Sequence record: OP136151.1
Direction: 5' to 3' (one strand)
Origin: Escherichia phage Pondi
Length of the DNA stretch: 60,610 bases
Below are positions 32,178 through 50,744 of this stretch, piece by piece (the stretch's first letter is position 1; each line of letters begins with the position of its first letter). The notes beneath the pieces were generated by a model. The model ran no database searches. It was not told the DNA's origin and worked only from the letters and a program-made list of their open reading frames with translations. Position numbers and translations under genes: made by a program.

Positions 32178-34046
32178 TTACGCATAGGTCAAGCCTCCTT
32201 TGGCATGAATCTCTTCGAGGTGTGCTTTGATTTTCTCAATCAGTTCAAAGCACTCTTTAGGTTTCAGCACCTGCGCATAGTAGACGTTGATGCCGAAGCG
32301 GTTTAAGAAAAGCTGTTGTGCGGCTTCCTTAGTTACATCACCTTTCTGGTGGTGCTCCATCCATTCGTCCTGTAATAGTTGACGAGTAGCGTGCATTGCG
32401 CGCCAGCGGCGATGGTTATTGATCTGAGTGTTCTTAGCGATAGCTGGTACGTGCATCCGGGTTACGTATTCTTCGGGTGACATCTTCAGTTTGAGTAAAT
32501 CTTCCTGAATCTCCTGACGCCACACCGCAGCCTGGTCGCTGATGGACTCGTCACCCGCTCGCATCTTTGCCAGTTCTTCCGCCGACACTTCTACTAATTG
32601 ACCTTTAACCATGACGGGTTCACCACGCGGGGCCAGAGGCTGTCGGCAGCCGCAATCAGGACAGCGTGACTCGGTAATTTCGTAGATATATCCACACGGT
32701 CGAATCCCGTTGTTAAATTGTTCGTCAGCCGACATAACTGCACATTGCTCAGGTGTGAACCTGCCGGACTTGTCGACAGGGACACGACAACGGGTAACCG
32801 GAACTGTGTCATCATCGCTGCTCGAAGACTTGCCACCTTTTCGGTCTGCCATTGACCAGACGCGGGGCTTATCGGGAAGGCCATGCTCCCGCCAGTTTCC
32901 CACATGGTCGAGTATAATCGCATAATCTTTACCGGGCGAAGGGCGAAGCACCCTGCCGAACGCCTGCATGAACCAGGATAAAGACATTGTGCGTCGCAGA
33001 AATTGTGCTGCCTCAATTGCAGGTAAGTCGAACCCTTCTGAGACAAGATCAACGGTAACGAGCACAAGTATTTCACGGCGCTCGAAAGCCTGGAGGGTCT
33101 TGAAACGTGTAGATTCATCATCGCCTCCGTGGAGTACGGCGGCTGGTATCCCTGCTCGCTGGTAAGCATTGGCCACAGACTGAGCGTGGGAGATGTCACA
33201 GCAAAATACAATTGTGAGTTTTCCATTGATGAGTTCCTGGTAGTGGCGCACTACATCGCCAGTGATTTTAGCCTTGTCCATCTCACGCGCCTGGTCCTGC
33301 TGGTTGTAGTCACCTCCAGCCGTCACACGCACCTTAGTAAAGTCCGCCTGTTCCGTAGGTGGCTCATAAATTTTATAGTCGCACAAGTTTCCTTCGTCAA
33401 TCAGCCAGCGCATCTCTGGCCCTTTGATTACCACGTCGACGATTCCGCTACCGTTGAGCGCTACACTCCCCATACCTTTACCGTCGGCACGTTCCGGTGT
33501 TGCAGTCACCAGCAAATAGCGCGCTTGAGGATTCATATATTGCAGAGGGCGACCGAAGGTGTTGTCGCGTGTCAGGTGGTGCGACTCATCGAACACACCA
33601 AAGGTGCAGCGCATTAATAACCGAAGCGTGGCCTCGCGCATGGCTTTGCGCTGTGGGGTAGCCTTCGGATTTTCTTTCAGTCGGGCGTTGACGGTCTGCA
33701 CAGAGGCCACGATCACTGGTGCACCTGGGCGATAGAATGTACGTCCGAACTTTGCCTGCTGTACGTTACCGCAGATAGCGCGAGTCTTCTCACTGCATAT
33801 AAAGTCGTGATGCAAATCTTGTGTCGCCAGACTTTCTGATATTTGACGCACCAGTTCCGAACGGTGACAGAAGATGATGCACATGTGACCAGCGTTGACC
33901 ATCTGTTCTACTATGCTGGTGAAGCAAAAAGTTTTACCTGCGCCCGTACTCATTATGATGACAGGTGCCTTATAGCCTGAGTGTAGGCAGGTGAAATACT
34001 CATTGATAACCTTCGCCTGATAGGGGCGCGCGGTACGTTTTGCCAT
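32178..34046 (-). CDS. SF2 DExH-box DNA helicase with C-terminal Cys-rich zinc-finger region, 622 aa
   Basis: Motif I MSTGAGKT, motif II DESHH, motif VI QAFGRVLR; C-terminal CRVP...CPDCGC. Confidence 0.8.
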   Translation of the reverse strand: MAKRTARPYQAKVINEYFTCLHSGYKAPVIIMSTGAGKTFCFTSIVEQMVNAGHMCIIFCHRSELVRQISESLATQDLHHDFICSEKTRAICGNVQQAKFGRTFYRPGAPVIVASVQTVNARLKENPKATPQRKAMREATLRLLMRCTFGVFDESHHLTRDNTFGRPLQYMNPQARYLLVTATPERADGKGMGSVALNGSGIVDVVIKGPEMRWLIDEGNLCDYKIYEPPTEQADFTKVRVTAGGDYNQQDQAREMDKAKITGDVVRHYQELINGKLTIVFCCDISHAQSVANAYQRAGIPAAVLHGGDDESTRFKTLQAFERREILVLVTVDLVSEGFDLPAIEAAQFLRRTMSLSWFMQAFGRVLRPSPGKDYAIILDHVGNWREHGLPDKPRVWSMADRKGGKSSSSDDDTVPVTRCRVPVDKSGRFTPEQCAVMSADEQFNNGIRPCGYIYEITESRCPDCGCRQPLAPRGEPVMVKGQLVEVSAEELAKMRAGDESISDQAAVWRQEIQEDLLKLKMSPEEYVTRMHVPAIAKNTQINNHRRWRAMHATRQLLQDEWMEHHQKGDVTKEAAQQLFLNRFGINVYYAQVLKPKECFELIEKIKAHLEEIHAKGGLTYA

Positions 34047-34104
34047 CTCGATGTTCTCTTATATGTGTGTTGACGATGAGGATAATAAAATTTTTAAAAA
34101 AGTA

Positions 34105-34134
34105 TTGCAATCGGTTTTTGGTTGAGTGTATGAT
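34105..34134 (+). promoter_or_regulatory. Promoter candidate in divergent intergenic region (TTGCAA-18-TATGAT)
   Basis: AT-rich 140-bp region between divergently transcribed helicase and gene 34187. Confidence 0.3.
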
Positions 34135-34186
34135 TCATTCCGTCAACACGACACAGCAAAACTTTAATCAACCTGGAGTAATACAA

Positions 34187-34951
34187 ATGTCTGGAATCTT
34201 TGAATCTATCGCATCGAACAACGAGAAAACTGTAGGTGTTCTGGAAGCGCTCGTAGAACAAAACACCAAAATCATTTCTCTGCTGGAAGTCATCGCTGGC
34301 GCTTACGGTAAACAATCTTACAACGGTCCGTTAACTGGCAACCAACAGTCATTCGCTGATGCGGCTGACGAAGTTGCTGAAGAAGTAGCTCAGTTAATCG
34401 GCCAGGAAACGGATGCTACCACGCTGGATAAGAACGGTCTACCGTGGGACTCCCGTATTCACTCTGCCGCTAAGACCTTCAACGCAGACGGCACCTGGAA
34501 ATATCTGCGTGGTGTTGATCGTGAAGTGCTGGTACCGCAGGTTGAAGCTGAACTGCGTGGTGATAAAGAGCGTGAAGATTACGCTACCGAAATCGAAGCC
34601 GGGATGAATGCACCAGTAGTACCTGCCGTTGAAGCGCCACAGGCACCTGTTGCACCGCAACCGGGTTTACCGCCGCTGACTGGTGTAGGTCTGCCGCCGC
34701 TGGTACCACAAATGCCTGTTGCGATCGACTTCCCGGCAATCGATGATGAGTCCGGTGCTACCGACGAAGCGATGGAACAGACCGCTGCGGCGCTGGCCCA
34801 TAAGCATGGTGCCGATGCACTGGAAAAACTGTATGGCCTGTTTGGTATCGCTGGCGGTAAGACTGCGAAAGACATCCAGGCTGGTTATAAATTTACCTTC
34901 TGGCGGTACGCCACCAACGATGACTTCCTGCGCAGCCAGTCAGTTATCTAA
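34187..34951 (+). CDS. Hypothetical replication-module protein, 254 aa, Pro-rich C-terminal segment
   Basis: Internal ATG with GGAG RBS; PQPGLPPLTGVGLPPLVPQMP low-complexity region. Confidence 0.5.
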   Translation: MSGIFESIASNNEKTVGVLEALVEQNTKIISLLEVIAGAYGKQSYNGPLTGNQQSFADAADEVAEEVAQLIGQETDATTLDKNGLPWDSRIHSAAKTFNADGTWKYLRGVDREVLVPQVEAELRGDKEREDYATEIEAGMNAPVVPAVEAPQAPVAPQPGLPPLTGVGLPPLVPQMPVAIDFPAIDDESGATDEAMEQTAAALAHKHGADALEKLYGLFGIAGGKTAKDIQAGYKFTFWRYATNDDFLRSQSVI

Positions 34952-34963
34952 GGGGATCACTCG

Positions 34964-36139
34964 ATGGAACACTTTATAACCGGACCGTCGAGTGCCGAAT
35001 TGTGGTCGAACTGTAAAGCCTATCTCCAGATGCGCCGCAACTGCCCGGAAGAAGAATCCGGGTACGCGGCCCAGGAAGGTACTACCGCTCACCACTTTTC
35101 AGAAGAAGCAATCAAGCGCGGTCATTACGATGTTCATCAATTTGTTGGACAAGTCTATGACCGCACAGGGATAGAATGCACTGAGGAAATGGCAGAGTTC
35201 TGCAACGTGTACACTGGCCGCGTCAAGCAACTAGTCGACATGTGTAGCGCTTTGGATGTTCCGGTCGACATTAGATCGGAGTATCGGGTCGACCTGACCC
35301 ACATTCACCCAGGCTTCTTCGGCACCCGAGATTTACATGCGATTGCGATACACAGTAACTGGGCCATTGTTGCGGATCTAAAATTCGGCAGGACGTTTGT
35401 GTCGGCTGAAGATAACCGCCAGCTAATGTGCTATGCGCTGGACATCGTATTGCGTTACCCGAACGTGGAGGAAGTACGCTTTGAAATCATCCAGCCACGC
35501 TGCCTCGGCGCAACGGGAGCAATACGCACAGCAACGTATACGCGTGCTGAACTGGAGTTATTTGCAGGTGTGGCGGCAGAATATCAAACCGCTAACCACA
35601 GCAACGAAATCCAGTTAGCAACCGCTGGCCCACACTGTATCTGGTGTGAAGCTATCGGTCGGTGCCGCGCTAATGCTGAGTATGTCATGAGCATGGCTGA
35701 GCCAGTGAAGTTTAACCCGAACCTGCTGTCGTCGGACGAAGTTCAGAAAATCATCAAACAATCAAAATTGGTGAAGAATTTTATTGACGGGGCGTACCAG
35801 TGGGGATTACAGTTAGCGCGTCAAGGCACGGTGATGAAAGACCTGAAGATGGTCAAAGTAAAATCCAGGGAAGCGCCTAAGAAAAACATCACGGTCGAGG
35901 AAGCGGCCAAAGCAATTAAGCTGGTGACCGGGATGGAACCAGACATGGACAAGATAGCACCGCGTAAGATTGGGGCGCTGTCAGAAATAAGGAAGACGTA
36001 CGGTGACGCCGTGGCTAAGATGCTGAGCGAACCGAAAACCGAAACGTTGGCGCTACGTGGTATCGAAGAAGCTGGTACCCCGGAACAAAGCCCGATGATG
36101 ATTGCACTAAACCAACCTATTACAAAACTGGAGAAGTAA
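34964..36139 (+). CDS. PD-(D/E)XK exonuclease, Cas4/RecB-like with Fe-S cluster cysteines, 391 aa
   Basis: Nuclease motifs GTRDLHAI and IVADLKFG (D...D-x-K); one N-terminal Cys plus CIWCEAIGRC as in Cas4/AddB Fe-S domains. Confidence 0.6.
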   Translation: MEHFITGPSSAELWSNCKAYLQMRRNCPEEESGYAAQEGTTAHHFSEEAIKRGHYDVHQFVGQVYDRTGIECTEEMAEFCNVYTGRVKQLVDMCSALDVPVDIRSEYRVDLTHIHPGFFGTRDLHAIAIHSNWAIVADLKFGRTFVSAEDNRQLMCYALDIVLRYPNVEEVRFEIIQPRCLGATGAIRTATYTRAELELFAGVAAEYQTANHSNEIQLATAGPHCIWCEAIGRCRANAEYVMSMAEPVKFNPNLLSSDEVQKIIKQSKLVKNFIDGAYQWGLQLARQGTVMKDLKMVKVKSREAPKKNITVEEAAKAIKLVTGMEPDMDKIAPRKIGALSEIRKTYGDAVAKMLSEPKTETLALRGIEEAGTPEQSPMMIALNQPITKLEK

Positions 36140-36142
36140 TTA

Positions 36143-37183
36143 ATGGCTATTCAAAACTCTGCTGATCAATTCCTGACTGGTACTGGCATCCTGGTATCCG
36201 GCGACCCGTTCCGCGCTAACACCACTGGCTTCCAGGGCGTTGCGCTGAAGGACGGTCGTGAGGAATATTTTTGCGCAGTGGCCTTCCCGAAAGACCAGCC
36301 AGCGGCCACGCGCTTTGATGAACTGTATGCGCTGATGCAACAGGAAGCGGCTAAGCATAAATACGCTGCGTCATATCAGGCGACTCAGTGGGTAGGTTTC
36401 CACTGGAAGATGGAAGATGGCGACGCTCCGCAAAACGTGAACAAGCCTGGTTGGAAAGGTTGCTGGGTTATCAAATTCAAGAACGGCTTCCAGCCACAGG
36501 TGTTCGACGTCGATCAGTCTGCGGTACCGTCTCCGTACAACGACACCGTTGGTCCTGACGGTAAGAAAGTGCAACAGCTTAAAGGCGCTCACACTTTCCC
36601 GTGCGGCCACTATGTTCGCGTGCTGTGCTCTATCAAGTGCAACGACTCAGCACCACCGCAGTCCGGCATCTACATTAACTTCCACATGATTCAGCGTGTG
36701 GGTTACGGTACGCCGATCGTGAGCGGTCCTGACTACACCAGCATTCTGAATCAGGCACCTGCGGCATCACTGGCTGGCATGAGCACTATGCCTGTAGGCG
36801 GTACTACTCCGGCGATGAGTGCACAACCGGGTATGCCTCCGGCTGCTGGCGGGATGCCTGGTTTACCTGGCGCTGGTATGCCTCCGGCAACTCCCGCTGC
36901 TCCGGTTGTTCCGGGTGCTGGTCTACCTCCTGCTGCTCCTGCACCTGCCGCCGCTCCTGCTGTACCTCCTGCTGCGCCTGTAGCACCGACGCCGCAGAGC
37001 CGCATGATTGCGACTGATTACACTTACGATCAGTACATCTCAAGCGGCTGGACAGAAGAAGCCCTGGTCGCTAACGGTAAGATGCAACCTGCGGCAGCCG
37101 CAGCACCGATGGCACCTCCGGCAGCACCGATGGCACCTCCGGCTGCACCTGCTGCACCTGGCGGACACCCTTACAACGCGTAA
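36143..37183 (+). CDS. Putative ssDNA-binding protein (DUF2815-like), 346 aa, Pro/Ala-rich C-terminal tail
   Basis: Sits immediately after the Cas4-like exonuclease, a pairing recalled from other phages; long PAAGGMPGLPGAGMPP tail; assignment from memory. Confidence 0.35.
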   Translation: MAIQNSADQFLTGTGILVSGDPFRANTTGFQGVALKDGREEYFCAVAFPKDQPAATRFDELYALMQQEAAKHKYAASYQATQWVGFHWKMEDGDAPQNVNKPGWKGCWVIKFKNGFQPQVFDVDQSAVPSPYNDTVGPDGKKVQQLKGAHTFPCGHYVRVLCSIKCNDSAPPQSGIYINFHMIQRVGYGTPIVSGPDYTSILNQAPAASLAGMSTMPVGGTTPAMSAQPGMPPAAGGMPGLPGAGMPPATPAAPVVPGAGLPPAAPAPAAAPAVPPAAPVAPTPQSRMIATDYTYDQYISSGWTEEALVANGKMQPAAAAAPMAPPAAPMAPPAAPAAPGGHPYNA

Positions 37184-37229
37184 CCAACCCACGGCCCCGC
37201 AAGGGGCCAACACTGAAGAGGAAAACACC

Positions 37230-37541
37230 ATGTACAACGAGAAAGAATTGAAAGCTGCTTTAGAATCACAATACAACGATCAAGCTAAAGTCAAGCAGAC
37301 CCTGACCGATGAACTTCAGGATCATCTGAATAACATCTCTATGAGTCAGGACCGTATCGAATGTCTGCTTGATGCTGTGTACGGTCGTATCTTCGGCAAC
37401 AATCCGACAACGGCTGGGACAGTCGGAGAACCTGTAGCTGATGGTACAAGTCTCGTCAGTCTGAACCGTCAAGCACGCGATCTGTCGGTCAAGCTGAACG
37501 AAATGGGCGACAAACTGACGTACCTGCTTAATAGCCTGTAA
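37230..37541 (+). CDS. Hypothetical protein, 103 aa
   Basis: Internal ATG with GAAGAGGAAAA upstream. Confidence 0.45.
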   Translation: MYNEKELKAALESQYNDQAKVKQTLTDELQDHLNNISMSQDRIECLLDAVYGRIFGNNPTTAGTVGEPVADGTSLVSLNRQARDLSVKLNEMGDKLTYLLNSL

Positions 37542-37568
37542 CAATCCCCACGCCACGGATGGCGTTTT

Positions 37569-38249
37569 ATGGAATCCGAAATCATGGCACAACGAATCGC
37601 TGCAATACACCTCATCCCCGCCAACTCTGCATTAGGTTCCCCCATTATCGCTGCATCCATCTCAATCTTCGGTGAAGAGAAACACCGCTACGATTACGTG
37701 TTGCAGGACTGGGAGAAAGTTACAGACCACTACGGTGATGACGTTTTCAAAAAGTTCATTTACTCCAACGTGCAGACGCTGGTAAACTCCGGGGCCGAAT
37801 TGATTGGTGCCAATATGATGGCCTCCCGCATCGTCGGTCGCCAGACTCAGCACCAGTGCAACGCTACCATCTGGCAGAATCACTACGAGTCACACGTCAG
37901 CCACTACGCTTATCTGTACGCGGTGACGAATGACAAGAAGCAACTGATGCTGAAGGGTCACAACTTTGACGGCTCGACACTTAACGCGGCCAACCGTTTT
38001 GTGGCTGAGCAAGAACGCAGTATCCCGACGATGACCGATAGCCCGGACAAAGGTCTGATGATGTTGGAAGAACTTTTCTACAAAGCTAAGAAGCTGCTGG
38101 GGCATGACGTTGACAGTCCGAACGTGAAGATCCTGAAGACTGCCGCACCGTCACTGGCGACACCATCGTTACCACCGAAGCTACCGGGCGCACCAGGTTT
38201 ACCACCACTGCCGGGCGCACCAGGTTTACCACCGCTGCCGAAAATGTAA
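37569..38249 (+). CDS. Hypothetical protein, 226 aa, C-terminal LPGAPGLPPLP repeats
   Basis: ORF directly upstream of DNA polymerase; tandem LPGAPGLPPLP x2 at C-terminus. Confidence 0.5.
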   Translation: MESEIMAQRIAAIHLIPANSALGSPIIAASISIFGEEKHRYDYVLQDWEKVTDHYGDDVFKKFIYSNVQTLVNSGAELIGANMMASRIVGRQTQHQCNATIWQNHYESHVSHYAYLYAVTNDKKQLMLKGHNFDGSTLNAANRFVAEQERSIPTMTDSPDKGLMMLEELFYKAKKLLGHDVDSPNVKILKTAAPSLATPSLPPKLPGAPGLPPLPGAPGLPPLPKM

Positions 38250-38258
38250 GGACTTAAA

Positions 38259-40466
38259 ATGGATGCTCGCGATTACACCTACGACATAGAGACGTACCCG
38301 AATACGTTTACCTTCAGTGCTCGTCACGTTGCGACAGGTAACCGTTATCGCTACGAAATCTCTGACCGCCGCGATGACCGGGAGAAGATGTTCTACTTCC
38401 TGAACTACCTGCGGAATAACGATCAGCGTATGGTGGGATTCAACAACCTGTGGTTCGACTGGGAAGTGGTCCAGTGGATCTATGAGAATCCCTGGTGTTC
38501 AGTCGCGGGTATCTACAATAAGGCCATGTCCCGCATCAAAGGTGATAACGCTTATCCGATGTGGGCCGACGCTCGACTCGTCAAGCAGATTGACCTACTG
38601 AAGATTCACCACTATGACAACAAGGCGAAGGCTACCAGCCTGAAGTCGCTTGAGATTGCCATGCGCATGAAGCAGGTGGAAGACCTGCCGTTCCCGGTCG
38701 GTACCCATCTCACCAACGAACAGAAAGATATTCTGTGGGCTTACAACGACCACGATGTTGATGCCACCACCGACTTCTACATCAAGTCCTACGACATGAT
38801 TGCGTTCCGTGAAGAACTGTCCGAGAAATATGGGTCGGACTTCATGAACCTGAACGATACGAAGATCGGCAGTGAGGTATTGATTCACGCCCTGGAGAAA
38901 GCCGGGGTGCAGTGCTACGGCAAACTCGGTGGTAAGCGTGTGCCGCGCCAGACTCCGCGCTCACAAATCGCACTGGCCGAGTGCATCCTGCCTTACATCC
39001 GCCTGGAACATCCGGCATTCCAGATGGTGCAGAAATACCTGATGGAGCAGACCATCAAGGAAACTAAAGGTGTGTTCTCCGACATCCGGTGTACACCTGA
39101 GATGGTCAAGTGGATGGACCCGAAGCGTGTGAAGGTCTGGCTGAAGGGTGTTAAGAAGCCACGCCGCCTGGCGCATATTCCGGCTGACGCTGACCTGACA
39201 GGGGCGAAGTTTGTGGCGGTCAGCTTGCATTGTCGCATCGACGGCTTTAACTATGACTTCGGTACCGGGGGATTGCACGCATCCCTCCACCGTCAGATTG
39301 TGCGTACCGGTAATGGTTTTACCATCGTCGACCTGGACGTGGCAAGTTACTATCCGAACCTGTCAATCAAGAACCGCATCTTCCCGGCGCACCTGTCAGA
39401 AGTTTACTGCGACGTATCGGAGTTCTTGTTTGACGAACGTAACCGCGTAGGTAAAAAGACAATGATGGGTGGCGCGTACAAGCTGGCCCTCAACGGTACG
39501 TATGGTAACAGCAACAACGAATACAGCGTGTTCTATGACCCGATGTACACCATGAAGATCACAATCAACGGGCAGCTTTCTCTGTGTATGCTGGTTGAGC
39601 AATTGCTGAAGGTACCGGGGTTACAGATGATTCAGTGTAACACTGACGGTATCACCTTCCATTGCCCTGACCAGTACCTGGAGCACGCCAACAATCTGCG
39701 CGTGTGGTGGGAGCAGGTTACCAAACTGGAACTGGAAGAGAACCGCTATGACCGCTTCTTTATCCGTGACGTGAACTCATACATCGCCGAGTACAGTGAA
39801 GGCTACTACAATCCTGAGAAGCCAGACAGCCGCTACAAGCGTAAGGGCGCATACGAATACAAACGTGAGTGGCATAAAGATCACTCCGCCCTGGTGGTGC
39901 AGAAGGCGGTTGAAGCGCGCATGGTCCACGGTGCTGACATGACGTCATTCATTATCAACCACCGTGACGAGTTTGACTTTATGATCCGTGGTAAGGTCAA
40001 CCGTGACTCGTCGCTGCATCTGGTTTACCCGGACGGCCACGAAGAGAAGTTGTCCAACACTATCCGGTATTACGTCACGCAGTCCGGCGGCACACTGATT
40101 AAGCGCACGGCACCGAAGGGTACGCCCGGAACGTGGAAGCGTAAGAACAAACTGACGGACCAGTATTACGACAGCGTGGTTGCGGAACTACAAGCGTCAG
40201 TACGGGACACCACCACGTACGCGGGTAAAGCCGGGATATTGAATGACGGGCGTATGGTTGCTATTGACGCTGCCGGGGTACCGCACGACGAGCGCATCCA
40301 CACGAAGAATAAAAGTCAGTGGGGCCTGGTAACTGAGTCCAACATGTGTTCCGGTCAGACCGTGGCCGACTGTAGCGACTTCAGCAAGTTCGACTGGAGC
40401 AAGGTTAACTATCTGTGGTACGTGTTTGAAGCGTGCAAATTATTAATTGTCGACAAAAAGACTTGA
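38259..40466 (+). CDS. Family B DNA polymerase with N-terminal 3'-5' exonuclease domain, 735 aa
   Basis: Exo I YDIETY, Exo II FNNLWFDWEVV, motif A DVASYYPNLSI, motif B KLALNGTYGN, motif C CNTDGI; motifs closest to phi29-type PolB. Confidence 0.8.
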   Translation: MDARDYTYDIETYPNTFTFSARHVATGNRYRYEISDRRDDREKMFYFLNYLRNNDQRMVGFNNLWFDWEVVQWIYENPWCSVAGIYNKAMSRIKGDNAYPMWADARLVKQIDLLKIHHYDNKAKATSLKSLEIAMRMKQVEDLPFPVGTHLTNEQKDILWAYNDHDVDATTDFYIKSYDMIAFREELSEKYGSDFMNLNDTKIGSEVLIHALEKAGVQCYGKLGGKRVPRQTPRSQIALAECILPYIRLEHPAFQMVQKYLMEQTIKETKGVFSDIRCTPEMVKWMDPKRVKVWLKGVKKPRRLAHIPADADLTGAKFVAVSLHCRIDGFNYDFGTGGLHASLHRQIVRTGNGFTIVDLDVASYYPNLSIKNRIFPAHLSEVYCDVSEFLFDERNRVGKKTMMGGAYKLALNGTYGNSNNEYSVFYDPMYTMKITINGQLSLCMLVEQLLKVPGLQMIQCNTDGITFHCPDQYLEHANNLRVWWEQVTKLELEENRYDRFFIRDVNSYIAEYSEGYYNPEKPDSRYKRKGAYEYKREWHKDHSALVVQKAVEARMVHGADMTSFIINHRDEFDFMIRGKVNRDSSLHLVYPDGHEEKLSNTIRYYVTQSGGTLIKRTAPKGTPGTWKRKNKLTDQYYDSVVAELQASVRDTTTYAGKAGILNDGRMVAIDAAGVPHDERIHTKNKSQWGLVTESNMCSGQTVADCSDFSKFDWSKVNYLWYVFEACKLLIVDKKT

Positions 40467-40491
40467 CGGTGAATTGCTGGCGGGGTACATT
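40463..40491 (+). promoter_or_regulatory. Promoter candidate (TTGACG-17-TACATT) inside an 8-bp inverted repeat (CTTGACGG...CCGTCAAG)
   Basis: -35 overlaps the polymerase stop codon; inverted repeat 40462..40469 / 40496..40503. Confidence 0.3.
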
Positions 40492-40642
40492 AGCCCCGTC
40501 AAGTAAACCAGTTAGGAAAATACAATGGCTATCTTATGGCTTAACGATTTACGGAAGTGTGGCGAGCACGGTCATTACAGTGCTAAACGGTGGGGTGAAG
40601 ATTGCCCTGTATGTAGTGGTAAAATCGGTCGTAAAAAGGGGA

Positions 40643-44165: not shown

Positions 44166-47100
44166 TTAAAACAACATCCAATATTTGTCACTCAATTCTT
44201 TCGCCAGTTCGTTCTTCTTGACCTGCAAGGCATCCAGTTCTGCACGCTTCGCTTCAGGTGACATACCGTCGTTCGCGTAAATCTCTTTCGTCTGGCGGTT
44301 GTACTTCTGCATCCGGGCAACGCCTTTCTCAATTGACTTACGGGCAGACAACACGCTGGCCTTCTCGGTCTTAAACTCCCGATACGCCTGCATGTTCTTC
44401 TGGTCTTTGTACGCCTTCAGGGTACCGTACGTTTGACCAGCCTTCTCGCTCATCTGGTACAGACGGTCGGTGTATTTGTCGCCGGACACACCGCCACGTA
44501 CGAAAGTTTTTACCACCGGGTAATCAAAATCCTTTTTAGCCGGGGCAACTTTTTCGGTACCCGTTCCTTTGCGATAGGCCACGTCCGTTACACCGACGAT
44601 GTACTGACCGACTGTCCCGGTGTAACCCTCAATCATATGCTGGAGACGCAGCGGACTACGCATCCATTCCGGGGCAGCTTCAGGTAACGCCTTGCTCATA
44701 TCCTTAATCCACTCAGGCGTCGTGGTGCTGTGCTGCTGGTTAGCTTCCAGACGTTGCAGTGACTGCGGTACGATTGGACGCTGAGTAAAGCTATTCATGT
44801 TGGTCTGGTCTTCGTAGATCGGCTTGAAGAACTGAGGCCAGTCTGCCGCAAACGTGTTAGACAACATGAAGCCCAGGCGTGCACCAAACATACGGTCGTC
44901 ACGGTACAGCGCTTCGAATGCACGCTCAGGAATAGTGCCGAACAGTGCGCCCAGTTCGAACGGTTTCGGGATACGGTAGCGAGTGTCGCCAGCGAAGATG
45001 ATCCAGAAGGAATCACGCTCATGTTCTGGCAGCGCCCAGTAACGTTCGTCGTCCGCGTTCATTGCCATAAGGGCCATCGTTGCACCAACAAGTAGAGCAC
45101 CTTTCAGCATGAACGCTTTCGGGTTCTCTTTACCACCACGTACCATACGGTCCAGACCCTGCACACGGGCATTCAGGAACGGTATCATCGCCATCGCTGC
45201 TTTGGTTACACGGCTGCTACCACGGCGGCTGAAGTTCAGCACATCGTTAGACTGGTATGCAGCTTCCACCGGATCGCCAGTGTGCTTCAGGACGTCTTCG
45301 TACACACCCATGCGAGTGGCCTGTTCGGATGCCGTCAGCAACTTACTGTACATTTCCCACAGCTTCTTAGGTGAGTTAACGATGGTGCCGCCTTTCTCCA
45401 GCTTGCGCAGGTTTTTGGCAACCGACTCAGGACGGGAGTTATCGTAACCGCCCATCATGCCGCCAGCGACGTGGTAGTCGACAGCCATCGAGTCGTTGCG
45501 GATGGAACGCATCGCACCCTGGAACGCTTTGAAGAACGGGCGGAACGTCAGGACGTCTTTAGTGATAGCAGACATTCCGTTGCGGCCAGCGGCTTTAGTC
45601 ATCTGCACATAGTTACCCATTACGTCACGCACGAAGTTGGTCATAACGAAGTTAGGCGTTGACGTCACGGCTGCTGTGAATACACGTTTAGGCCAGCCGA
45701 GAATGTTGATGAGGGTATCGACGGCTTCCGGGCCAACACCTGCGATTGCTTCCAGCAACTGCGGGTCGGTCACTTCGTAATACTTCGCCTTGCCACCTTC
45801 ACGCACGGAGATAATGTTAGCGCCCTGCGGTGCTACTGCGGTGAACAGGTTGGAGTATTGCGCCATCTGCTCAGCGGTCATACCTTCAACCTTCAGGCCC
45901 AGGTTGGTCAGCGCACGTTTCATCTGCTCGTTGCTGATACCGACAGGCTTGAAGTTGTGCGGCACTTCTTCCAGCGCTGCGTTGATGGTAATGTCGCGCA
46001 CCTTCTGCATGGCCGCGTTCTTGTAGCCGGACGAGATCATGTGGTTAACGTTACGCGCCATGTTCTCCAGGATGTCCATTTTACCAGCGCCACCCTTCAG
46101 ACGGCGGATGCCGGAAGACTGATCAGCGAGGCCACGTTTTCCAGACGGTGCTGTTACACGGTCCACTTCCTCATCCACACGGTAGAACGGAACGTAGTCG
46201 TCGGATTCGAACAGTTTACGCTGCTCAGGATCTACGATGCCAGTTTGCTCACCGAAGTCGAGGATGGCTTTGTTAAACTCACGCCAGTCTTTGTGCGCCT
46301 GGTTGAATACCTTACGCATTTCCGGGCGACGGTTAACATAGTCGATGATGTCTTTAATCTGCTTCTCGGTGTACAGGTTTTCGCGGCCTTCTTCCATCAA
46401 GCGTTTGGCACGCACAGCACCCGCCCAGTATTCCCACACTGGCAGCATATTACCTTTCATCTCCAGCACTGGATTGAAGATTTCAGTGAAGCCTTTGGTG
46501 TTCTTGTTCAGGCTGATGCCACCGTCTTTGTATACCGGAGCGCCGTGGTTCATTGCGACGGCCACGGTGCTGTTCACGTTCTTCGCCAGCATTGCCATCT
46601 TGTACGCCGACTCTTTACCCTGACGCAGTTCACCGTTGTTACCAGCCTTCTCATATTTGGCGATGGTGTACAGGTCATCCACGCCTTTCTGATACAAGCC
46701 TTCCATCGTCAGACCGTTGTCTTTCATGATGTCTTTGATGCGCTGGAACAGAGAGCGGTCATCGCGGTACATGGTGTCACGCATACCCTGCTTGATGTCT
46801 TCGTCCACTTCCGCAGACTCGATGTCGTTTTTCTTTTTCAGGCTGGCGGCAAAGTTACGCGGCGCGCTGTACTGCATCGGCGGCAGAGATTTACGCACGT
46901 CGTCACGGTTGACAGTGTTGTCACGCAGGTACTGAGCATTGGCCTGAATAAGCTGGCGTACAGACTCCATGCTGGCGCGACCGTCAATCAGCTTGGCTTT
47001 AATCATCAACTGACGCAGAGCTTCCAGCACGCGGGTAATGACGTTGGACTTCTCCAGGATAGCTGGGTTTTCCGCAGCCAGCGCTAGGACTTCTTCAGCC

Positions 47101-50100
47101 ATCATACGCTGCGCGTCAGGTGACGACATGTCGTACAGTTCGCTGTAGCTCTCGCGCACTTCTTTGAAATACTTCGCCAGCGCCGGGGACTTATCGGCGG
47201 CCAGGATTTTATCCATCTCAGCGTCGTATTCCGGTTTAGACAGGCGAGCACGCAGACCGTAGTGTACGACAATCTCATGACGCAACAGAGCTTCCACTTC
47301 TTCCTTGCTGGTCAGGTTTTCGGAGATCAGTTTAGCGCTCACGTTGCCAGCGTCATAGAAGCCGAGCAGGACGCTACCTTCCGGCAGGTCGATACCCATA
47401 TCTTCCTGACGCTGCATGACGGTCATGTCTACAGCCTGCGCGCCTTTGAACTTCTTCAGGAAGTCGGCGGCAACCACAGCCACATCTTCCGGTGACATAC
47501 CTTGCTTATCAGACGCAGGTTTAACGCTGGCAGCACCGGACTGTTTGTCAATCTTACGCTTAGCGTAGTCCTTACCGAAAATCTCACGACGACCTTTTGA
47601 GTCTTCAGTAGCCAGGTACGTGTCGTGGATAGACTTAACGGTGAACGTCTCGCCGTCTTCCTCGAAAGTCTTACCTACCAGCGTGTGATAGTCGACATTA
47701 GGGGTAACGTCCGGCTTGTCAGTCTTCTTCGGTACGCGAGCTTCTTTGTAGGCCACGTAATGTTTGGCTGGCGCTGACATGTCACGGGAGTCAACCTTAT
47801 CACCACGGGCATACGCGCGGTCGATGGTTTCCTTCAGTGTGATACCGTCAGGTTGCATCTTCTCCAGGGCGCGGACGTAGTTGCGACGTACCAGTGGCTT
47901 CATACCACGTGTGAAATCTTCCAGTGACTTCTCGAAAGATTCAGTGCGCGCGGCAGACTTCTCACGCAGACGGTCAGCCGTCGCCTGACTTTCTTTACTC
48001 AGACCTTTCGGTGACGGTTCAGCGATACTGGACATGCGTTCTTCCAGTTCCTTACGCATGGTCGCGCGAGTCTTACCTTTCAGTGGCGCGTACAGATGAC
48101 GGTCGGATTCCGGTACCTGCGTTTCCATAGCGGCCAGGGTCTCACGCACTTTGTTCAGCGGACGCTTGGTATCGTTGACTTCATGCAGCACACCTTGCAG
48201 CGTATTAGCGTTGACACGGCTTTCCGAAGACATCCCTAAACGATCACCTTTGCCCGGCGCGTCCATCACGTTGCTGTCACCACCGCGACGAATCATGACA
48301 TCGCCGTTGTCCAGCACGAAGCGACGACCTTGCACACCAGTGATCTTGCGGACTTCACCGTGGGAGTCTTTCGCATACTTCCCGTCCAGGTCGGTACCTT
48401 CCACTGGCCCAAAACCAACACGACCTTCAACGTCGGTAACGCGAGTAGACTCACCTTCGATTGCGGCGTTATCCTTTTCCTTCTCTGCGATCATCTCACC
48501 CAGGTCACGCTGGACTTCGGCAGACTGCGCCAGTACATCGTCGGTCGCCTGCTGTGCATCGGTAACCATCTCACCCAGGTTGCGCTCGTCTTCGAACTCT
48601 ACAGGGGCTAGGTCATAACGCTCACGGGCATCTTTGGTTTCCTGAGACACACGCTTCATACCTTCCGGTACCACAGACGGCACGTTGATTTCACGGGCGT
48701 CGACAATGTGACCGTTGCCGTTCTCATCAACCAGACGTACAGCGCGGCCCTGGAATTTATCGACGGAATACTCCTTGCCGTTCCAGTTCACTTTGTTGCC
48801 GACGTCAACGCCACGCTCGTTGGCTTCCTTCAGGATCTTGTTGGTAACCTGAATAGCTGGCTGCTTCTTGCCAGGTAACGCCGGACGCACAGATTCACGC
48901 TCGATGTATTTCGCTACAGCCTCGTCACCTTTCGCCTTTAGTTCTGCCTGACGTGCTTCTTCGGCGGCCAGCGCTTCTGTATCGACTTCTGGCGCGGCTT
49001 TCTTTTTGGTACGGGCAAACAGTGCTGACTTCGGTTTAACCTCGGCAGCGGCTGGCTCAGCGGCGGGAACGGTCGGTTCCAGTGCAGCGGCTACGTCAAT
49101 CTGCGGCAGCGGCGGTGGAGTCACTTTATCTTTCGGCGGCAGTGCTGGCGGTACCACAGCTTCGGTAACCTGCGGTAATGCTGGCGCTTCCAGTTTCTGC
49201 TGTACTGCTGCCAGTACCGGAGACTCTTCAGCGACACCGCGTGGATTGTAACCAGTGGCCTCTTTAACCTGCGCAACTGGACCGGGCATAGCGATGGTGG
49301 AAGTTTGCCCCGGAGACGGCAGACCTTTAGTTTCACCCGGCAGCGGACCGACGTCACCCTGCGCTACCTGCTGCTGTACCATCTGAGCTACAGACTGCGG
49401 TGCGTTAGTGGCGCTCGCCTTGTTCGCATAGTAGATAGAGTCCGGGGAGTCGAATAGTTCGCTGACCATCTGATCCATAGCGTCGACTTCACCGACATCA
49501 CGGGATGCGGCCATCGCTTCAGCCGGAGACATACCCTGAGCGCGCGCTTCCATGTAGGCAGACTTGCGAGCTTCAGTGATTGCAGGAGACGCCTGTTCAA
49601 CCATCTGGTCCAGCACGTCACCGCCGCCCATCTCAGCACGCACAGCGTCGTATTCGTTCGGGTCCACACCTTCAACAGCCTGACCGGACTCAGCCGCAGC
49701 GTCACCGATAGCGTTGTTAACAGAGCGGTTATCCTTCCAGTCTTTGACCATGCCGGGAGCTTGCACCGCGCCATGCAGAGTAGCACCTACGCCAGCACCA
49801 GTTACACCGGAGAACGCCACGTCATTCAGGAACTGGCCTACCGTCATGTCTTCGTCGAGCACGCCGATGTCGTAACCATTCTGGATAGCCTGGGTAGCGG
49901 ATTCCTGAATACCTTCAGCTATTGCAGATTTGCCGAGATCAGTAAGGCTGTGGGCACCTTTCTTCATGATGAGGCCCAGCGGTACCGCTTCAGTAATCGG
50001 TTCCAGTGCGGCGAACATGGTTGCGCGGTTGTCGGCTTCTGCCGGAGACAGACCTTTGTCGATTGAGTCCTGATAGTAGGAACCGTACGCCTGACCAGTC

Positions 50101-50744
50101 ATCTCAGCGAGGCCAGCGACCGGGCGCTTCAACAGGATGGACGTCAGGATTGCCGGAGACATGTCCTGCGCGCCCGTGAGGATTGTGGATACCAGGTTTT
50201 TAGCTGACCACTCGTCGCCAGTCTTCGGTGCAGTTTTGGCAATTTCGTTTGACAGGCGAAGACCTTCGTCACGCGCGGCAACAAAGTCGGCATCCTTATT
50301 CAGTTCTGCGGCCTTCGCTTTATCAATAGCGGCGTAGAGAGCTTTATTCTTTTGCAGTTTGGTCGCATACGTGTCGCCTTCGGCAGCGGTAAAGGTAGCT
50401 GGGTCAATCCCCAGTTCGGCAGCATATGACGGATCGTTACGCAGGCGTTCAGCCAGCACCCCGTCAGTCAGGTCTTGACCTTTGACGGCCACGCCTTGTT
50501 TGATACCCTGCCATGAACGTTGCATACGCTCAGGCATCGCGGCGAGAGATTTGTAAATTACGTCGCCCCAACTATCTTCTTTTGCTGGTTCTGTGACGGC
50601 TGTCTCACTTCCGATACCGGAAAAGTCTACGTCACCCAGGTCGAAGTTAACTGTCGACAGGTCGATGTCAGATTTAGGTTTTGATGCAGGTTGTTGATTT
50701 GGCTGGGATAAGTCCAGTCCAGAAAGGTCGATGTTGCTTGCCAT
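44166..50744 (-). CDS. Giant virion-associated protein, about 2192 aa (putative internal/ejection protein; function unknown)
   Basis: Start at ATG 50744 preceded by AGGGGGAG (track ORF extends 13 codons further); last gene of the late operon; no Walker A, RNA polymerase or peptidase motif recognised by eye. Confidence 0.6.
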   Translation of the reverse strand: MASNIDLSGLDLSQPNQQPASKPKSDIDLSTVNFDLGDVDFSGIGSETAVTEPAKEDSWGDVIYKSLAAMPERMQRSWQGIKQGVAVKGQDLTDGVLAERLRNDPSYAAELGIDPATFTAAEGDTYATKLQKNKALYAAIDKAKAAELNKDADFVAARDEGLRLSNEIAKTAPKTGDEWSAKNLVSTILTGAQDMSPAILTSILLKRPVAGLAEMTGQAYGSYYQDSIDKGLSPAEADNRATMFAALEPITEAVPLGLIMKKGAHSLTDLGKSAIAEGIQESATQAIQNGYDIGVLDEDMTVGQFLNDVAFSGVTGAGVGATLHGAVQAPGMVKDWKDNRSVNNAIGDAAAESGQAVEGVDPNEYDAVRAEMGGGDVLDQMVEQASPAITEARKSAYMEARAQGMSPAEAMAASRDVGEVDAMDQMVSELFDSPDSIYYANKASATNAPQSVAQMVQQQVAQGDVGPLPGETKGLPSPGQTSTIAMPGPVAQVKEATGYNPRGVAEESPVLAAVQQKLEAPALPQVTEAVVPPALPPKDKVTPPPLPQIDVAAALEPTVPAAEPAAAEVKPKSALFARTKKKAAPEVDTEALAAEEARQAELKAKGDEAVAKYIERESVRPALPGKKQPAIQVTNKILKEANERGVDVGNKVNWNGKEYSVDKFQGRAVRLVDENGNGHIVDAREINVPSVVPEGMKRVSQETKDARERYDLAPVEFEDERNLGEMVTDAQQATDDVLAQSAEVQRDLGEMIAEKEKDNAAIEGESTRVTDVEGRVGFGPVEGTDLDGKYAKDSHGEVRKITGVQGRRFVLDNGDVMIRRGGDSNVMDAPGKGDRLGMSSESRVNANTLQGVLHEVNDTKRPLNKVRETLAAMETQVPESDRHLYAPLKGKTRATMRKELEERMSSIAEPSPKGLSKESQATADRLREKSAARTESFEKSLEDFTRGMKPLVRRNYVRALEKMQPDGITLKETIDRAYARGDKVDSRDMSAPAKHYVAYKEARVPKKTDKPDVTPNVDYHTLVGKTFEEDGETFTVKSIHDTYLATEDSKGRREIFGKDYAKRKIDKQSGAASVKPASDKQGMSPEDVAVVAADFLKKFKGAQAVDMTVMQRQEDMGIDLPEGSVLLGFYDAGNVSAKLISENLTSKEEVEALLRHEIVVHYGLRARLSKPEYDAEMDKILAADKSPALAKYFKEVRESYSELYDMSSPDAQRMMAEEVLALAAENPAILEKSNVITRVLEALRQLMIKAKLIDGRASMESVRQLIQANAQYLRDNTVNRDDVRKSLPPMQYSAPRNFAASLKKKNDIESAEVDEDIKQGMRDTMYRDDRSLFQRIKDIMKDNGLTMEGLYQKGVDDLYTIAKYEKAGNNGELRQGKESAYKMAMLAKNVNSTVAVAMNHGAPVYKDGGISLNKNTKGFTEIFNPVLEMKGNMLPVWEYWAGAVRAKRLMEEGRENLYTEKQIKDIIDYVNRRPEMRKVFNQAHKDWREFNKAILDFGEQTGIVDPEQRKLFESDDYVPFYRVDEEVDRVTAPSGKRGLADQSSGIRRLKGGAGKMDILENMARNVNHMISSGYKNAAMQKVRDITINAALEEVPHNFKPVGISNEQMKRALTNLGLKVEGMTAEQMAQYSNLFTAVAPQGANIISVREGGKAKYYEVTDPQLLEAIAGVGPEAVDTLINILGWPKRVFTAAVTSTPNFVMTNFVRDVMGNYVQMTKAAGRNGMSAITKDVLTFRPFFKAFQGAMRSIRNDSMAVDYHVAGGMMGGYDNSRPESVAKNLRKLEKGGTIVNSPKKLWEMYSKLLTASEQATRMGVYEDVLKHTGDPVEAAYQSNDVLNFSRRGSSRVTKAAMAMIPFLNARVQGLDRMVRGGKENPKAFMLKGALLVGATMALMAMNADDERYWALPEHERDSFWIIFAGDTRYRIPKPFELGALFGTIPERAFEALYRDDRMFGARLGFMLSNTFAADWPQFFKPIYEDQTNMNSFTQRPIVPQSLQRLEANQQHSTTTPEWIKDMSKALPEAAPEWMRSPLRLQHMIEGYTGTVGQYIVGVTDVAYRKGTGTEKVAPAKKDFDYPVVKTFVRGGVSGDKYTDRLYQMSEKAGQTYGTLKAYKDQKNMQAYREFKTEKASVLSARKSIEKGVARMQKYNRQTKEIYANDGMSPEAKRAELDALQVKKNELAKELSDKYWMLF

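Follow-up and report, generated by a model that had tools for sequence, protein, structure and literature searches.

Proline-rich linkers and a clade-restricted GLPP-type motif in three proteins of the replication/recombination module of Escherichia phage Pondi

Three proteins encoded in the replication/recombination module of Escherichia phage Pondi, here named gX, SSB and p226, contain Pro-rich segments that are best read as flexible linkers bearing a clade-specific short motif, which in gX and p226 is most likely a low-affinity docking site; we put the probability of this reading at about one half. The sequence of the segments, their conservation, predicted disorder and module context are observations, from which we infer the docking function and any partner. 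The window, that is, the whole stretch of 60,610 nucleotides analysed (OP136151.1), belongs to a Xuquatrovirus with 94.7% DNA identity to PTXU04. The genes of the module relevant here are as follows.

34187-34951, + strand: gX, 254 aa, homologue of PTXU04 gp40; an ORF preceded at 8 nt by a ribosome-binding site, CTGGAG
34964-36139: DUF2800 exonuclease, between gX and SSB
36143-37183: SSB
37230-37541: small protein of 103 aa, between SSB and p226
37569-38249, + strand: p226, 226 aa, homologue of PTXU04 gp36; DnaQ/DEDD-like exonuclease fold, helical region and Pro-rich C-terminal tail

The module of gX, DUF2800 exonuclease, Gp2.5-like SSB, small protein, exonuclease-like p226 and DNA polymerase is conserved, and the helicase is transcribed divergently. 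The sequence-only reading had described Pro/Gly/Leu-rich tails on three consecutive proteins. The segments are real, and the peptides quoted for them were found within gX (APQPGLPPLTGVGLPPLVPQMP), within SSB (QPGMPPAAGGMPGLPGAGMPPATPAAPVVPGAGLPPAAP) and at the end of p226 (PSLPPKLPGAPGLPPLPGAPGLPPLPKM), but the genes are three out of five in a row, with the DUF2800 exonuclease and the 103-aa protein intervening. The word "tail" holds for p226, where the segment is truly C-terminal, but not for gX, where it is an internal linker, and in SSB it forms part of a composite extension of 142 aa. In a CRISPRi-ART screen the PTXU04 homologues of gX and SSB were scored as Fit and that of p226 as 'Not Fit'; thus, the p226 tail cannot be essential in the laboratory.

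The pattern G[LM]PP[LA], which was defined after inspection of the data so that the following expectation and shuffle figures are inflated, occurs seven times in the likely genes of the window, against 0.049 copies expected from residue frequencies, and all seven copies are confined to gX, SSB and p226; the three linkers contain 2, 3 and 2 copies, against means of 0.01, 0.03 and 0.04 after shuffling each linker separately with its composition preserved, and 0 of 20,000 shuffles gave at least one copy in all three at once. The sharing of an exact substring was significant for gX and p226 (PGLPPL, P about 0.009) and not significant for SSB with gX or p226 (P 0.16 and 0.81). The clustering of Pro-rich proteins per se (three of five neighbouring genes, with six such proteins in the window) was not significant after scanning all windows, at ~0.1-0.2 by our own hypergeometric estimate.

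The product of gX belongs to PHROG 11133, a family of unknown function, and 80 homologues were found. It consists of an N-terminal helix, a conserved WDxRIH motif, a helix, the Pro-rich linker and a folded C-terminal domain, for which Foldseek gave no match in PDB.

34412-34519, + strand: conserved motif TLDKNGLPWDSRIHSAAKTFNADGTWKYLRGVD (aa 76-111), mean column conservation 0.80
34559-34723, + strand: internal Pro-rich linker (aa 125-179), pLDDT below 50 at aa 139-154 and 156-169
34655-34702, + strand: linker motif block APQPGLPPLTGVGLPPL (aa 157-172), with two GLPPL units
34724-34948, + strand: C-terminal helical domain (aa 180-254, 75 aa), pLDDT mostly 84-92

A tblastn search with gX gave matches in 109 phage records, mostly spanning the TLDKNGLPWDSRIHSAAKTFNADGTWKYLRGVD region only, in proteins annotated as RecT, recombinase or hypothetical; in P0097-P0101 the matching protein also bears an Rv2179c-like exonuclease domain. 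Some gX homologues carry odd annotations ('pyruvate dehydrogenase E1 component', 'topoisomerase II domain-containing protein'), probably explained by likeness of Pro/Ala-rich composition.

The motif block of the linker (PGLPP..GLPP) reaches a column conservation of 0.68, close to the 0.66 of the folded C-terminal domain and above the 0.38 of the linker outside the block; relatives at 41-55% identity retain the block to the same degree as the folded domain. Residues P159, P162 and P163 each reach 90% conservation or more, and PGLPP[LIVTA] is found in nearly all distinct linkers taken from the 80 homologues, while the flanks and the linker length (41-73 aa between two sequence anchors) vary. The codons behave differently: several Pondi units encode their first Leu by TTA, nearly all units of the more distant relatives have a different Leu codon there, CTG in most cases, and the Pro codons of the units likewise differ between relatives. 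Since the codons turn over while the peptide stays, constraint acts on the protein.

The same preservation is seen at the end of p226. This protein has an exonuclease fold lacking the ExoI DxE motif, with AAIHLI in its place, and therefore, judging from the sequence, is probably not an active two-metal exonuclease.

38142-38246, + strand: C-terminal tail AAPSLATPSLPPKLPGAPGLPPLPGAPGLPPLPKM (aa 192-226), pLDDT below 50
38226-38240, + strand: terminal LPPLP motif (aa 220-224), per-column conservation 0.8-1.0

All 22 homologues of p226 possess the tail, whose length ranges widely (about 25-70 aa by our own count), and its LPPLP terminus is nearly invariant among them down to 41% identity, with P221 invariant and L223 and P224 at least 90% conserved. 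The tail is underlain by a 27-nt tandem DNA repeat (38184-38240, 2.1 copies, 96% matches).

SSB differs from these two proteins in that its Pro-rich units follow a looser pattern, PG[MLV]P[PG], and resemble an ordinary disordered linker in their behaviour.

36143-36754, + strand: OB-fold core (aa 1-204), Gp2.5-like/Enc34-type, PHROG 7011 with E=4e-48
36755-36997, + strand: linker 1 (aa 205-285, 81 aa), disordered; Pro 28%, Ala 28%, Gly 14%, Met 7%
36998-37084, + strand: conserved C-terminal module SRMIATDYTYDQYISSGWTEEALVANGKM (aa 286-314), the GWT module, invariant bar one residue in Pondi, PTXU04 and Bas95
37085-37162, + strand: linker 2 (aa 315-340, 26 aa), Ala/Pro-rich, with a 21-nt tandem repeat
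37163-37180, + strand: non-acidic C-terminal tip GHPYNA; pattern GH.Y[NT][AQ] in relatives L007, L010 and L011

The tail of about 90 aa proposed earlier for SSB thus resolves into a Pro-rich segment of 81 aa, the conserved module, a second Pro/Ala stretch and the conserved tip, the whole extension being non-acidic with only four Asp/Glu residues. Linker 1 contains G[LM]PPA three times and GMPGLPG, and differs by indels between Pondi, PTXU04 and Bas95; the number of PG[MLV]P[PGA] units varies from relative to relative. Tandem Repeats Finder located the repeat of linker 2 at 37100-37149 (period 21, 2.4 copies, 96% matches), with another copy number in PTXU04. The conserved elements of the extension are the GWT module and the tip, which reads PHAYNQ in L008 and THAYNA in L009, and the Pro-rich part is not among them. 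Of the 150 best family representatives, 97 matched a loose pattern for the terminal module, in most cases right at the C-terminal end; the median tail length in the family is 125 aa, and the tails contain about 20% Pro and 22% Ala. Long antisense ORFs extend across the SSB linker (e.g. 36751-37005, minus strand).

Disorder prediction, which the sequence-only reading had proposed as a check, was run on the gX linker and the p226 tail with AlphaFold pLDDT as a proxy for disorder, and values below 50 were obtained across both segments modelled. Together with variable length, frequent indels, local tandem DNA repeats and the presence of linkers of other sequence in distant phages, this supports well the suggestion that the segments are flexible linkers; in the comparison of Pondi, PTXU04 and Bas95, and by Tandem Repeats Finder, indels and tandem repeats are restricted to the Pro-rich segments. 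The companion suggestion of a shared docking motif has indirect support from gX PGLPP..GLPP and p226 LPPLP, which are conserved like folded domains while flanks and codons turn over.

We propose that the Pro-rich segments are intrinsically disordered, probably extended like polyproline-II helices, and act as flexible tethers within the module. The gX linker would connect the WDxRIH motif region to the small folded C-terminal domain; that of SSB would connect the OB-fold core to the GWT module and the GH.Y[NT][AQ]-type tip, which would take the place of the acidic tail of characterised T7-type SSBs; in p226 the linker would itself form the end of the protein. In addition, the gX linker would bear a short linear motif, [small]-G-L-P-P-hydrophobic, and that of p226 hydrophobic-P-P-L-P at its C-terminus, both subject to purifying selection at the amino-acid level in the Xuquatrovirus-like clade and most likely a docking site of low affinity that a common component of the replication/recombination machinery would recognise. 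In SSB the PG[MLV]P[PG] units may represent the motif in weak, multivalent copies, or be simply linker. The GLPP-type motif is restricted to one clade, so its co-occurrence in three proteins counts as a single evolutionary event, which could come from shared ancestry, replication slippage or sequence exchange between genes of one genome.

It is possible, if doubtful, that the segments are pure entropic spacers without a binding role, whose function depends solely on length, flexibility and Pro/Ala/Gly composition, the GLPP-type units having arisen through slippage during replication, similarity of composition and occasional gene conversion between linker DNAs of the same genome. The 21- and 27-nt repeats and the variation of copy number among Pondi, PTXU04 and Bas95 agree with this explanation, as do the unrelated linkers found at the same positions in 9NA, SppYZU01, P106B, RHph_X2_24, AAM22, JustaPhage and Vibrio 142E35-1. 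These linkers, in the same module, are Pro-, Ala- or Gln-rich: that of the 9NA SSB contains ATPAPVAAPV repeated seven times, and other genera have MQPQQSAP five times, SQAPVTQ four times or a QQP-rich sequence. Proteus PM-CJR has a Gln-rich repeat in SSB and a gX without the Pro-rich linker. In rigallicviruses, strings of 8-9 residues recur in both the gX and the SSB linker with 22-26 of 24-27 nt identical, as DNA exchange would give, and in distant lineages the similarity of same-genome linkers is largely due to composition (P about 0.1, corrected). The PxxP motifs of the E. coli SSB linker bind no partner and are dispensable (PMC7145534, PMC10164576), which calls for caution in taking every PxxP as a docking site. 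Spacers alone, however, do not account for a gX block and a p226 terminus conserved like folded domains at 41-55% identity when the adjoining linker residues are not, and the turnover of codons means that recent DNA exchange cannot explain the retention of the motif. Within the clade, moreover, gX and SSB linkers share more 4-mers in the same genome than across genomes after correction for composition (P about 0.012).

This modest concordance would also suit an unlikely explanation, in which the Pro-rich repeats are multivalent 'stickers' that co-condense SSB, gX and p226 on ssDNA into a replication/recombination compartment through linker-linker or linker-OB-fold contacts. SSB contains 14 PxxP motifs together with PG[MLV]P units in repeated copies, L008 carries elastin-like PGVPG/GVPVGG units, and E. 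coli SSB undergoes phase separation (PMC7584906), which can be tuned by engineering of the disordered linker (PMC12143593). The concordance is weak, however, and absent in L011, the segments of gX and p226 are short, at 35-55 aa, and hold just 2-3 copies of the motif, and for E. coli SSB the linker/OB-fold model is in dispute.

A role at the level of nucleic acid or translation, such as EF-P-dependent pausing at Pro-Pro to tune expression or folding, a DNA signal, or an ORF that overlaps the GC-rich repeat or runs antisense to it, is very improbable. Pro-Pro occurs 2, 7 and 3 times in the three proteins, the GLPP units of Pondi are enriched for TTA, a rare Leu codon, and the antisense ORFs over the SSB linker could be taken in the same sense. 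However, relatives conserve the peptide and not the TTA codon or the DNA sequence, low-complexity GC-rich coding sequence is expected to give rise to such ORFs anyway, and Pro-Pro followed by Leu or Ala is not known as a strong EF-P-dependent stalling context.

With a docking motif still the preferred reading, the layout is a variant of the known SSB-type hub architecture. E. coli SSB likewise has an OB-fold core and a long low-complexity disordered linker (Pro/Gly/Gln-rich, of variable length and with PxxP motifs), and it terminates in a short conserved element for interactions, the acidic SSB-Ct tip DDDIPF; in the phage SSB family, 22 of the 150 best representatives resemble this host tip in ending with ..PF, and some of these with ..DDIPF. 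The Pondi protein differs in its core, which is of Gp2.5/Enc34 type rather than of the bacterial tetramer type, in its non-acidic tip and in the extra GWT module between two linkers; furthermore, the conserved Pro-rich motif in Pondi sits in gX and p226, not in SSB. T7 gp2.5 and ORF6 (DUF2815) of Enterobacter phage Enc34 share the homologous core, through PHROG 7011 and more weakly PF10991 (24.3 bits, under the 26-bit cut-off) and the Enc34 SSB entries 5odk/5odj, the only PDB sequence matches (E about 0.2). They also have an unstructured C-terminal region with presumed protein contacts, but the characterised tails are short and strongly acidic (in Enc34 ORF6, acidic residues make up 16 of the final 29, PMC5686142), in contrast to the long Pro/Ala/Gly/Met-rich extension of Pondi.

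For p226 the nearest comparison is with DnaQ, the epsilon subunit of DNA polymerase III, in which a DEDDh exonuclease domain is followed by a flexible linker and a C-terminal peptide docking on the polymerase alpha subunit, although p226 lacks the ExoI DxE and its linker is Pro-rich. In composition the segments resemble the Ala/Pro-rich inter-domain linkers of 2-oxo acid dehydrogenase E2 and the Pro/Gln-rich linkers of ZipA, FtsK and TonB, extended flexible spacers between folded modules, for which we know of no conserved motif common to different proteins of one pathway. Eukaryotic PxxP and PPLP ligands of SH3 and WW domains and the repeats of formin FH1 show a resemblance in pattern only (hydrophobic-P-P-hydrophobic-P, in tandem within a disordered region), and we do not claim membership; we know of no SH3, WW or profilin-like receptor that has been recognised in the phage or suggested for E. 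coli. The phage Pro-rich units are often followed by Lys within two residues (LPPLPGK, LPPLPKM, ALPPKL).

The Pro-rich segments lie in the replication and recombination module of Pondi, which comprises the following genes:

32178-34046, minus strand: SF2 helicase
34187-34951, plus strand: gX, a 254-aa protein with no assigned function
34964-36139, plus strand: DUF2800 PD-(D/E)XK exonuclease
36143-37183, plus strand: Gp2.5-like ssDNA-binding protein (SSB)
37230-37541, plus strand: 103-aa protein
37569-38249, plus strand: p226, a 226-aa protein with no assigned function
38259-40466, plus strand: DNA polymerase

Over positions 34000-40500, DNA identity is 94.7% with Xuquatrovirus PTXU04 and 89.4% with HelliStehle Bas95. 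This gene order, p226 excepted, is shared by Salmonella phage 9NA, Shewanella phage SppYZU01, the Rhizobium phages P106B and RHph_X2_24, Pantoea phage AAM22, Klebsiella phage JustaPhage, Proteus phage PM-CJR and Vibrio phage 142E35-1. The biology of the podoviruses of the Pondi/PTXU04 group has been called largely enigmatic (PMC11990801), and most of the fitness-relevant genes of Xuquatroviruses have no known function (PMC11879866). A scan for promoters and terminators gave nothing above shuffled expectation. The Pro/Gly/Leu-rich peptides quoted in the sequence-only reading are present in all three proteins that it named, but these are three of five genes in a row rather than three consecutive genes. 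The word "tails" is appropriate only for p226, where the segment forms the C-terminus (aa 192-226); in gX it is an internal linker, and in SSB an 81-aa linker followed by further elements.

The disorder expected for these segments was borne out by the AlphaFold models of gX and p226. With pLDDT below 50 used as a proxy for disorder, the low-scoring stretches cover aa 139-154 and 156-169 of gX, and aa 137-221 and 223-226 of p226. The in-frame indels separating Pondi, PTXU04 and Bas95 fall in the Pro-rich segments, and segment length varies among relatives, which, together with the low pLDDT, supports the proposed flexible linkers. The segments can thus be regarded with high confidence as disordered, extended linkers. 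A collagen-like reading was rejected, as the Gly-X-Y register is not sustained.

Among the likely genes of the window, the motif G[LM]PP[LA] is confined to gX, SSB and p226, where it occurs in seven copies against 0.049 expected from residue frequencies; shuffling of each Pro-rich segment gave 0.01-0.04 copies against the 2, 3 and 2 observed, although these figures are overstated, since the motif was chosen with the data already in view. By exact-substring sharing, gX and p226 are the sole significant pair (PGLPPL, P ~0.009), and the likeness of SSB to both is restricted to the degenerate motif.

Conservation among relatives is the central result. Among the 80 gX homologues found, the linker measures 41-73 aa and aligns poorly, yet almost all distinct linkers contain PGLPP[LIVTA], as a rule twice with a few residues in between (one homologue, P0091, is of an IPAIP type, on a contig that ends before p226). 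In Pondi the motif peptide is APQPGLPPLTGVGLPPLVPQ. Mean column conservation is 0.68 for the PGLPP..GLPP block, close to the 0.66 of the folded C-terminal domain, and 0.38 (with 27% gaps) for the rest of the linker; conservation of a block inside a diverging disordered segment is the behaviour expected of a short linear motif. The disordered tail of p226 behaves similarly. Each of the 22 homologues, the most distant at 41% identity, has a tail composed of PxLP-type units, about 25-70 aa long by our own count, which finishes with a nearly invariant LPPLP (0.8-1.0 per column) and one to three further residues; the Pondi peptide is LPGAPGLPPLPGAPGLPPLPKM. The p226 protein is restricted to the Xuquatrovirus-like clade, as is the GLPP motif, and in five relatives with genomic context (L007-L011) gX contains the motif and p226 has an LPP-type tail.

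At the DNA level, the segments contain local tandem repeats of 27 nt (2.1 copies, 38184-38240) and 21 nt (2.4 copies, 37100-37149), and the GLPPL units of different genes have GGTTTACCNCCNCTG in common, with 87-93% identity over 15 nt. This string includes the rare Leu codon TTA, with which several GLPP units of Pondi encode their first Leu. In relatives that are 41-55% identical, however, the Leu codons of nearly all units are different ones, mostly CTG, and the Pro codons are variable too, while the peptide is kept, so the constraint acts on the protein and not on the DNA. A DNA-level constraint was rejected on these grounds, and explanations at the level of nucleic acid or translation are unlikely. 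As judged from these alignments, the gX and p226 linkers hold a short motif under selection at the amino-acid level. We consider it most likely that this motif serves as a docking site, with moderate confidence (about 0.5).

The strongest alternative, which we regard as less likely, is that the segments are pure spacers and that the repeated motif is a product of slippage, shared composition and intragenomic DNA exchange. In Escherichia coli the PxxP motifs of the SSB linker neither bind a partner nor matter in vivo (PMC7145534, PMC10164576). In distant phages a linker occupies the equivalent position of gX, with sequences unrelated to GLPP: PTPAVPVAPASTVPAAPV... in 9NA, IPVPPLPVPPV in AAM22, STPAPPASEPTPAAPAQPAAP in SppYZU01 and Gln/Pro-rich linkers in the rigallicviruses. 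The Pro-rich spacer is ancient and generic; GLPP is particular to the Xuquatrovirus-like clade. Concordance of linker type within genomes across distant genera (P ~0.001 at k=3) was largely lost, to P ~0.1, after correction for amino-acid composition. Two observations speak against pure spacers: the motif is conserved at domain level while its codons have turned over, and 4-mers common to linkers of the same genome remain in excess within the clade (P ~0.012).

In the rigallicviruses RHph_X2_24 (L012 4854-5564 and 6727-7692) and P106B (L005 3071-3517 and 4992-5930), the linkers of gX and SSB have long strings in common within each genome. QPVQQYQQP in one of these phages is identical at 25-26 of 27 nt and YPAQQPQQ in the other at 22-23 of 24 nt, which looks like DNA exchange and agrees with the spacer explanation; the string differs between the two phages, though they are related. 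These strings suggest concerted evolution or gene conversion between linker-coding segments and, with the within-clade 4-mer signal, are what remains as a hint of coordinated change. The gX homologue of P106B (L005 3071-3807) is annotated as two ORFs, P106B_54 and P106B_53, and the frame break is located inside the Gln/Pro-rich linker; it may stem from a frameshift, from missequencing of the repeat or from a true split.

Known Pro-rich or replisome-binding consensus patterns were compared with the motifs. Several p226 homologues, ending in LPPLPGK or LPPLPVK, match the SH3 class II consensus PxxPx[KR], while Pondi p226 (LPPLPKM) and homologues ending in LPPLPGQ do not. The beta-clamp-binding pattern is QL[SD]LF. 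A beta-clamp-binding role of QPGLPPL was rejected by inspection, since its Gln is not conserved in the clade and its hydrophobic pattern does not fit.

In gX the linker is followed by a 75-aa domain with pLDDT mostly of 84-92, for which a Foldseek search of the PDB returned nothing below E=2. A tblastn search with gX matched 109 phage records, mostly over a region of about 45 aa around the WDxRIH motif alone, with the consensus (L)DxxG(L/I/F)PWDxRIHxxxKxxxxDGxWKxxRGVD (34412-34519, gX aa 76-111). The matching proteins are annotated as RecT, recombinase or hypothetical, and some metagenomic relatives (P0097-P0101) combine the matching region with an Rv2179c-like 3'-5' exonuclease domain (PF16473) in one protein.

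SSB matched PHROG 7011 over aa 7-315 (E=4e-48) and Pfam PF10991 with 24.3 bits (E=2.7e-5), which is under the gathering cut-off of 26 and makes it a member of a divergent subfamily. Its sequence matches in the PDB were the Enc34 SSB entries 5odk and 5odj only, with E ~0.2. By sequence, SSB is a Gp2.5-like, Enc34-type protein with a predicted homologous OB-fold ssDNA-binding core. Directly downstream of the core is the conserved LAGMSTMPVGG; the 81-aa linker is followed by a conserved GWT module, SRMIATDYTYDQYISSGWTEEALVANGKM (aa 286-314), a second Ala/Pro stretch of 26 aa and the tip GHPYNA, which reads GH.Y[NT][AQ] in most relatives. The conserved elements of the C-terminal part thus sit outside the Pro-rich repeats, and in the relatives L007-L011 the linkers consist of PG[MLV]P[PGA] units varying in number.

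SSBs of prokaryotes and phages are described as typically having an acidic C-terminal tail (PMC5686142). The 142-aa tail of the Pondi SSB, with four Asp/Glu, two Lys/Arg and the end GGHPYNA, is not of this type. An exhaustive HMMER search collected 770 representative homologues at E<=1e-3, and the best 150 of these were used for statistics. The median length of their C-terminal extensions is 125 aa, with about 20% Pro, 22% Ala and 11% Gly; an acidic end (at least five Asp/Glu in the last 15 residues) was found in none of the 114 family tails analysed. A loose pattern for ...TYEQ[FY]I..GWTD.QL...G[YFLM]M was present in 97 of the 150 best representatives (P0103-P0252), lying a median of four residues from the C-terminus in those that match, and 22 of the 150 end in ..PF, several of them in ..DDIPF like the host SSB tip. 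On this survey, the combination of a long disordered linker rich in Pro and Ala with a conserved module at the end is a family trait, in contrast to the short acidic tails of the two characterised T7-type SSBs, T7 gp2.5 and Enc34 ORF6 (PMC5686142).

The p226 protein (Pondi_00066, 100% identical) is annotated as hypothetical, and remained of unknown function in the HHpred-based re-annotation by the PTXU04 authors. Its model has an RNase H-like DnaQ fold. Inspection did not find the catalytic DEDD residues with the ExoI DxE on strand 1, which reads I-A-A-I-H-L-I, with A11, A12 and H14 conserved in the 22 homologues; in a weak, non-significant hhalign alignment H14 and I16 are paired with the D and E of the exonuclease of 9NA. 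The ExoIII-like H112-x-A-x-L-[YFW]-A likewise has no Asp. Searches of Pfam, NCBIfam and PHROG gave no relevant match to an exonuclease family, and a profile search of the PDB gave nothing relevant. A sequence link to Rv2179c-like phage exonucleases was dismissed (hhalign probability at most 1%, not significant), so that similarity of fold alone stands; matches to Pfam TraG-D_C (E=0.003, below the cut-off) and NCBIfam PglB (E=0.078) were taken as noise. Since the DnaQ/DEDD-like fold lacks DxE, p226 is probably a pseudo-exonuclease. No obvious Shine-Dalgarno sequence precedes its annotated ATG at 37569 (37545-37590), and the start in relatives corresponds to the second ATG (37584, Met6). The short interval just upstream, which follows the stop codon of the 103-aa gene, holds a small hairpin, ACGCCA-CGGA-TGGCGT followed by TTTT, which the terminator scan did not call.

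Fitness calls for the homologous genes are available from a transcriptome-wide CRISPRi-ART screen of PTXU04 (PMC11879866, supplementary file 16). The homologues of gX (gp40; 1.81, P=9.6e-5), SSB (gp38; 2.06) and the helicase (gp41) were scored Fit, that of the 103-aa protein (gp37) Semi-Fit, and those of p226 (gp36), the exonuclease (gp39) and the DNA polymerase (gp35, PTXU04_00035) Not Fit; the authors of the screen concede false negatives (PMC11879866). The Not Fit polymerase, against Fit calls for SSB, gX and the helicase, reflects either a knockdown false negative or a polymerase that limits the phage less than one would expect.

Hub proteins of the SSB type are well known to have disordered Pro-rich linkers, and the basic feature is therefore ordinary. 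Within the literature searched, three aspects appear to be new: the clade-specific GLPP/LPPLP motif, conserved in gX and p226 and echoed in SSB; a large Gp2.5-like SSB subfamily built on a non-acidic arrangement of linker, GWT module and tip; and the exonuclease-like fold of p226. Three handles are provided: PGLPP..GLPP of gX, the widespread SSB subfamily with linker and GWT module, and p226, encoded next to the polymerase gene. If the motif is a docking site, it would reveal how the replisome is wired in a non-model phage and would be a counter-example to the irrelevance of PxxP motifs in SSB linkers; if not, the Pro-rich segments are ordinary flexible linkers.

A bolder extension of the docking-site reading, which we consider improbable, is a private proline-motif code of Xuquatrovirus-like phages, in which one receptor surface would assemble the replication and recombination machinery by reading hydrophobic-P-P-hydrophobic(-P) peptides on the disordered arms of the essential gX, of SSB and of the catalytically dead, exonuclease-like p226. 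The receptor might be the OB fold of SSB, the polymerase, the helicase/primase or a host protein. Such a code would also entail concerted evolution of the linkers from the different proteins of a genome, as is hinted at by the same-genome 4-mers in the clade and the 8-9-mers of rigallicviruses. It would be a bacterial-virus counterpart of SH3/PxxP hubs, in which linker motifs matter, unlike in E. coli SSB. A role of the segments in a condensate, as also proposed in the sequence-only reading, is an improbable explanation drawn by analogy with E. coli SSB (PMC7584906, PMC12143593).

Pro-rich stretches were also observed elsewhere in the window:

44166-50783, minus strand: giant polyvalent protein of 2205 aa
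927-1403, minus strand: contains a further Pro-rich stretch
4897-7278, minus strand: contains a further Pro-rich stretch

The stretch in the giant protein (aa 529-578, ...APALPQVTEAVVPPALPPKDKVTPPPLPQ...) holds ALPPK and PPPLP, like units of the p226 tail; by size and position the protein matches PTXU04 gp25 (about 2,198 aa), which is Fit. The p226 profile also matched PDB 5yrx, the nucleoid-associated protein Rv3716c of Mycobacterium tuberculosis, which has a very similar tail. The match is compositional and does not reflect homology; PGMPG-type tails thus recur on unrelated DNA-associated proteins.

Other features were noted among the relatives. In Bas95 the helicase gene contains an intein (L002 183-3047) and the CDS of the DNA polymerase consists of two joined parts (L002 7204-9466), both insertions being absent from Pondi and PTXU04. 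Downstream of the polymerase, relatives (L007, L008 and L011) encode a small protein (L011 8908-9099) that weakly matches the Acb2/Tad1 hairpin domain of an anti-defence family, RdgC-like proteins and a CsrA homologue; the CsrA homologue is Semi-Fit in PTXU04.
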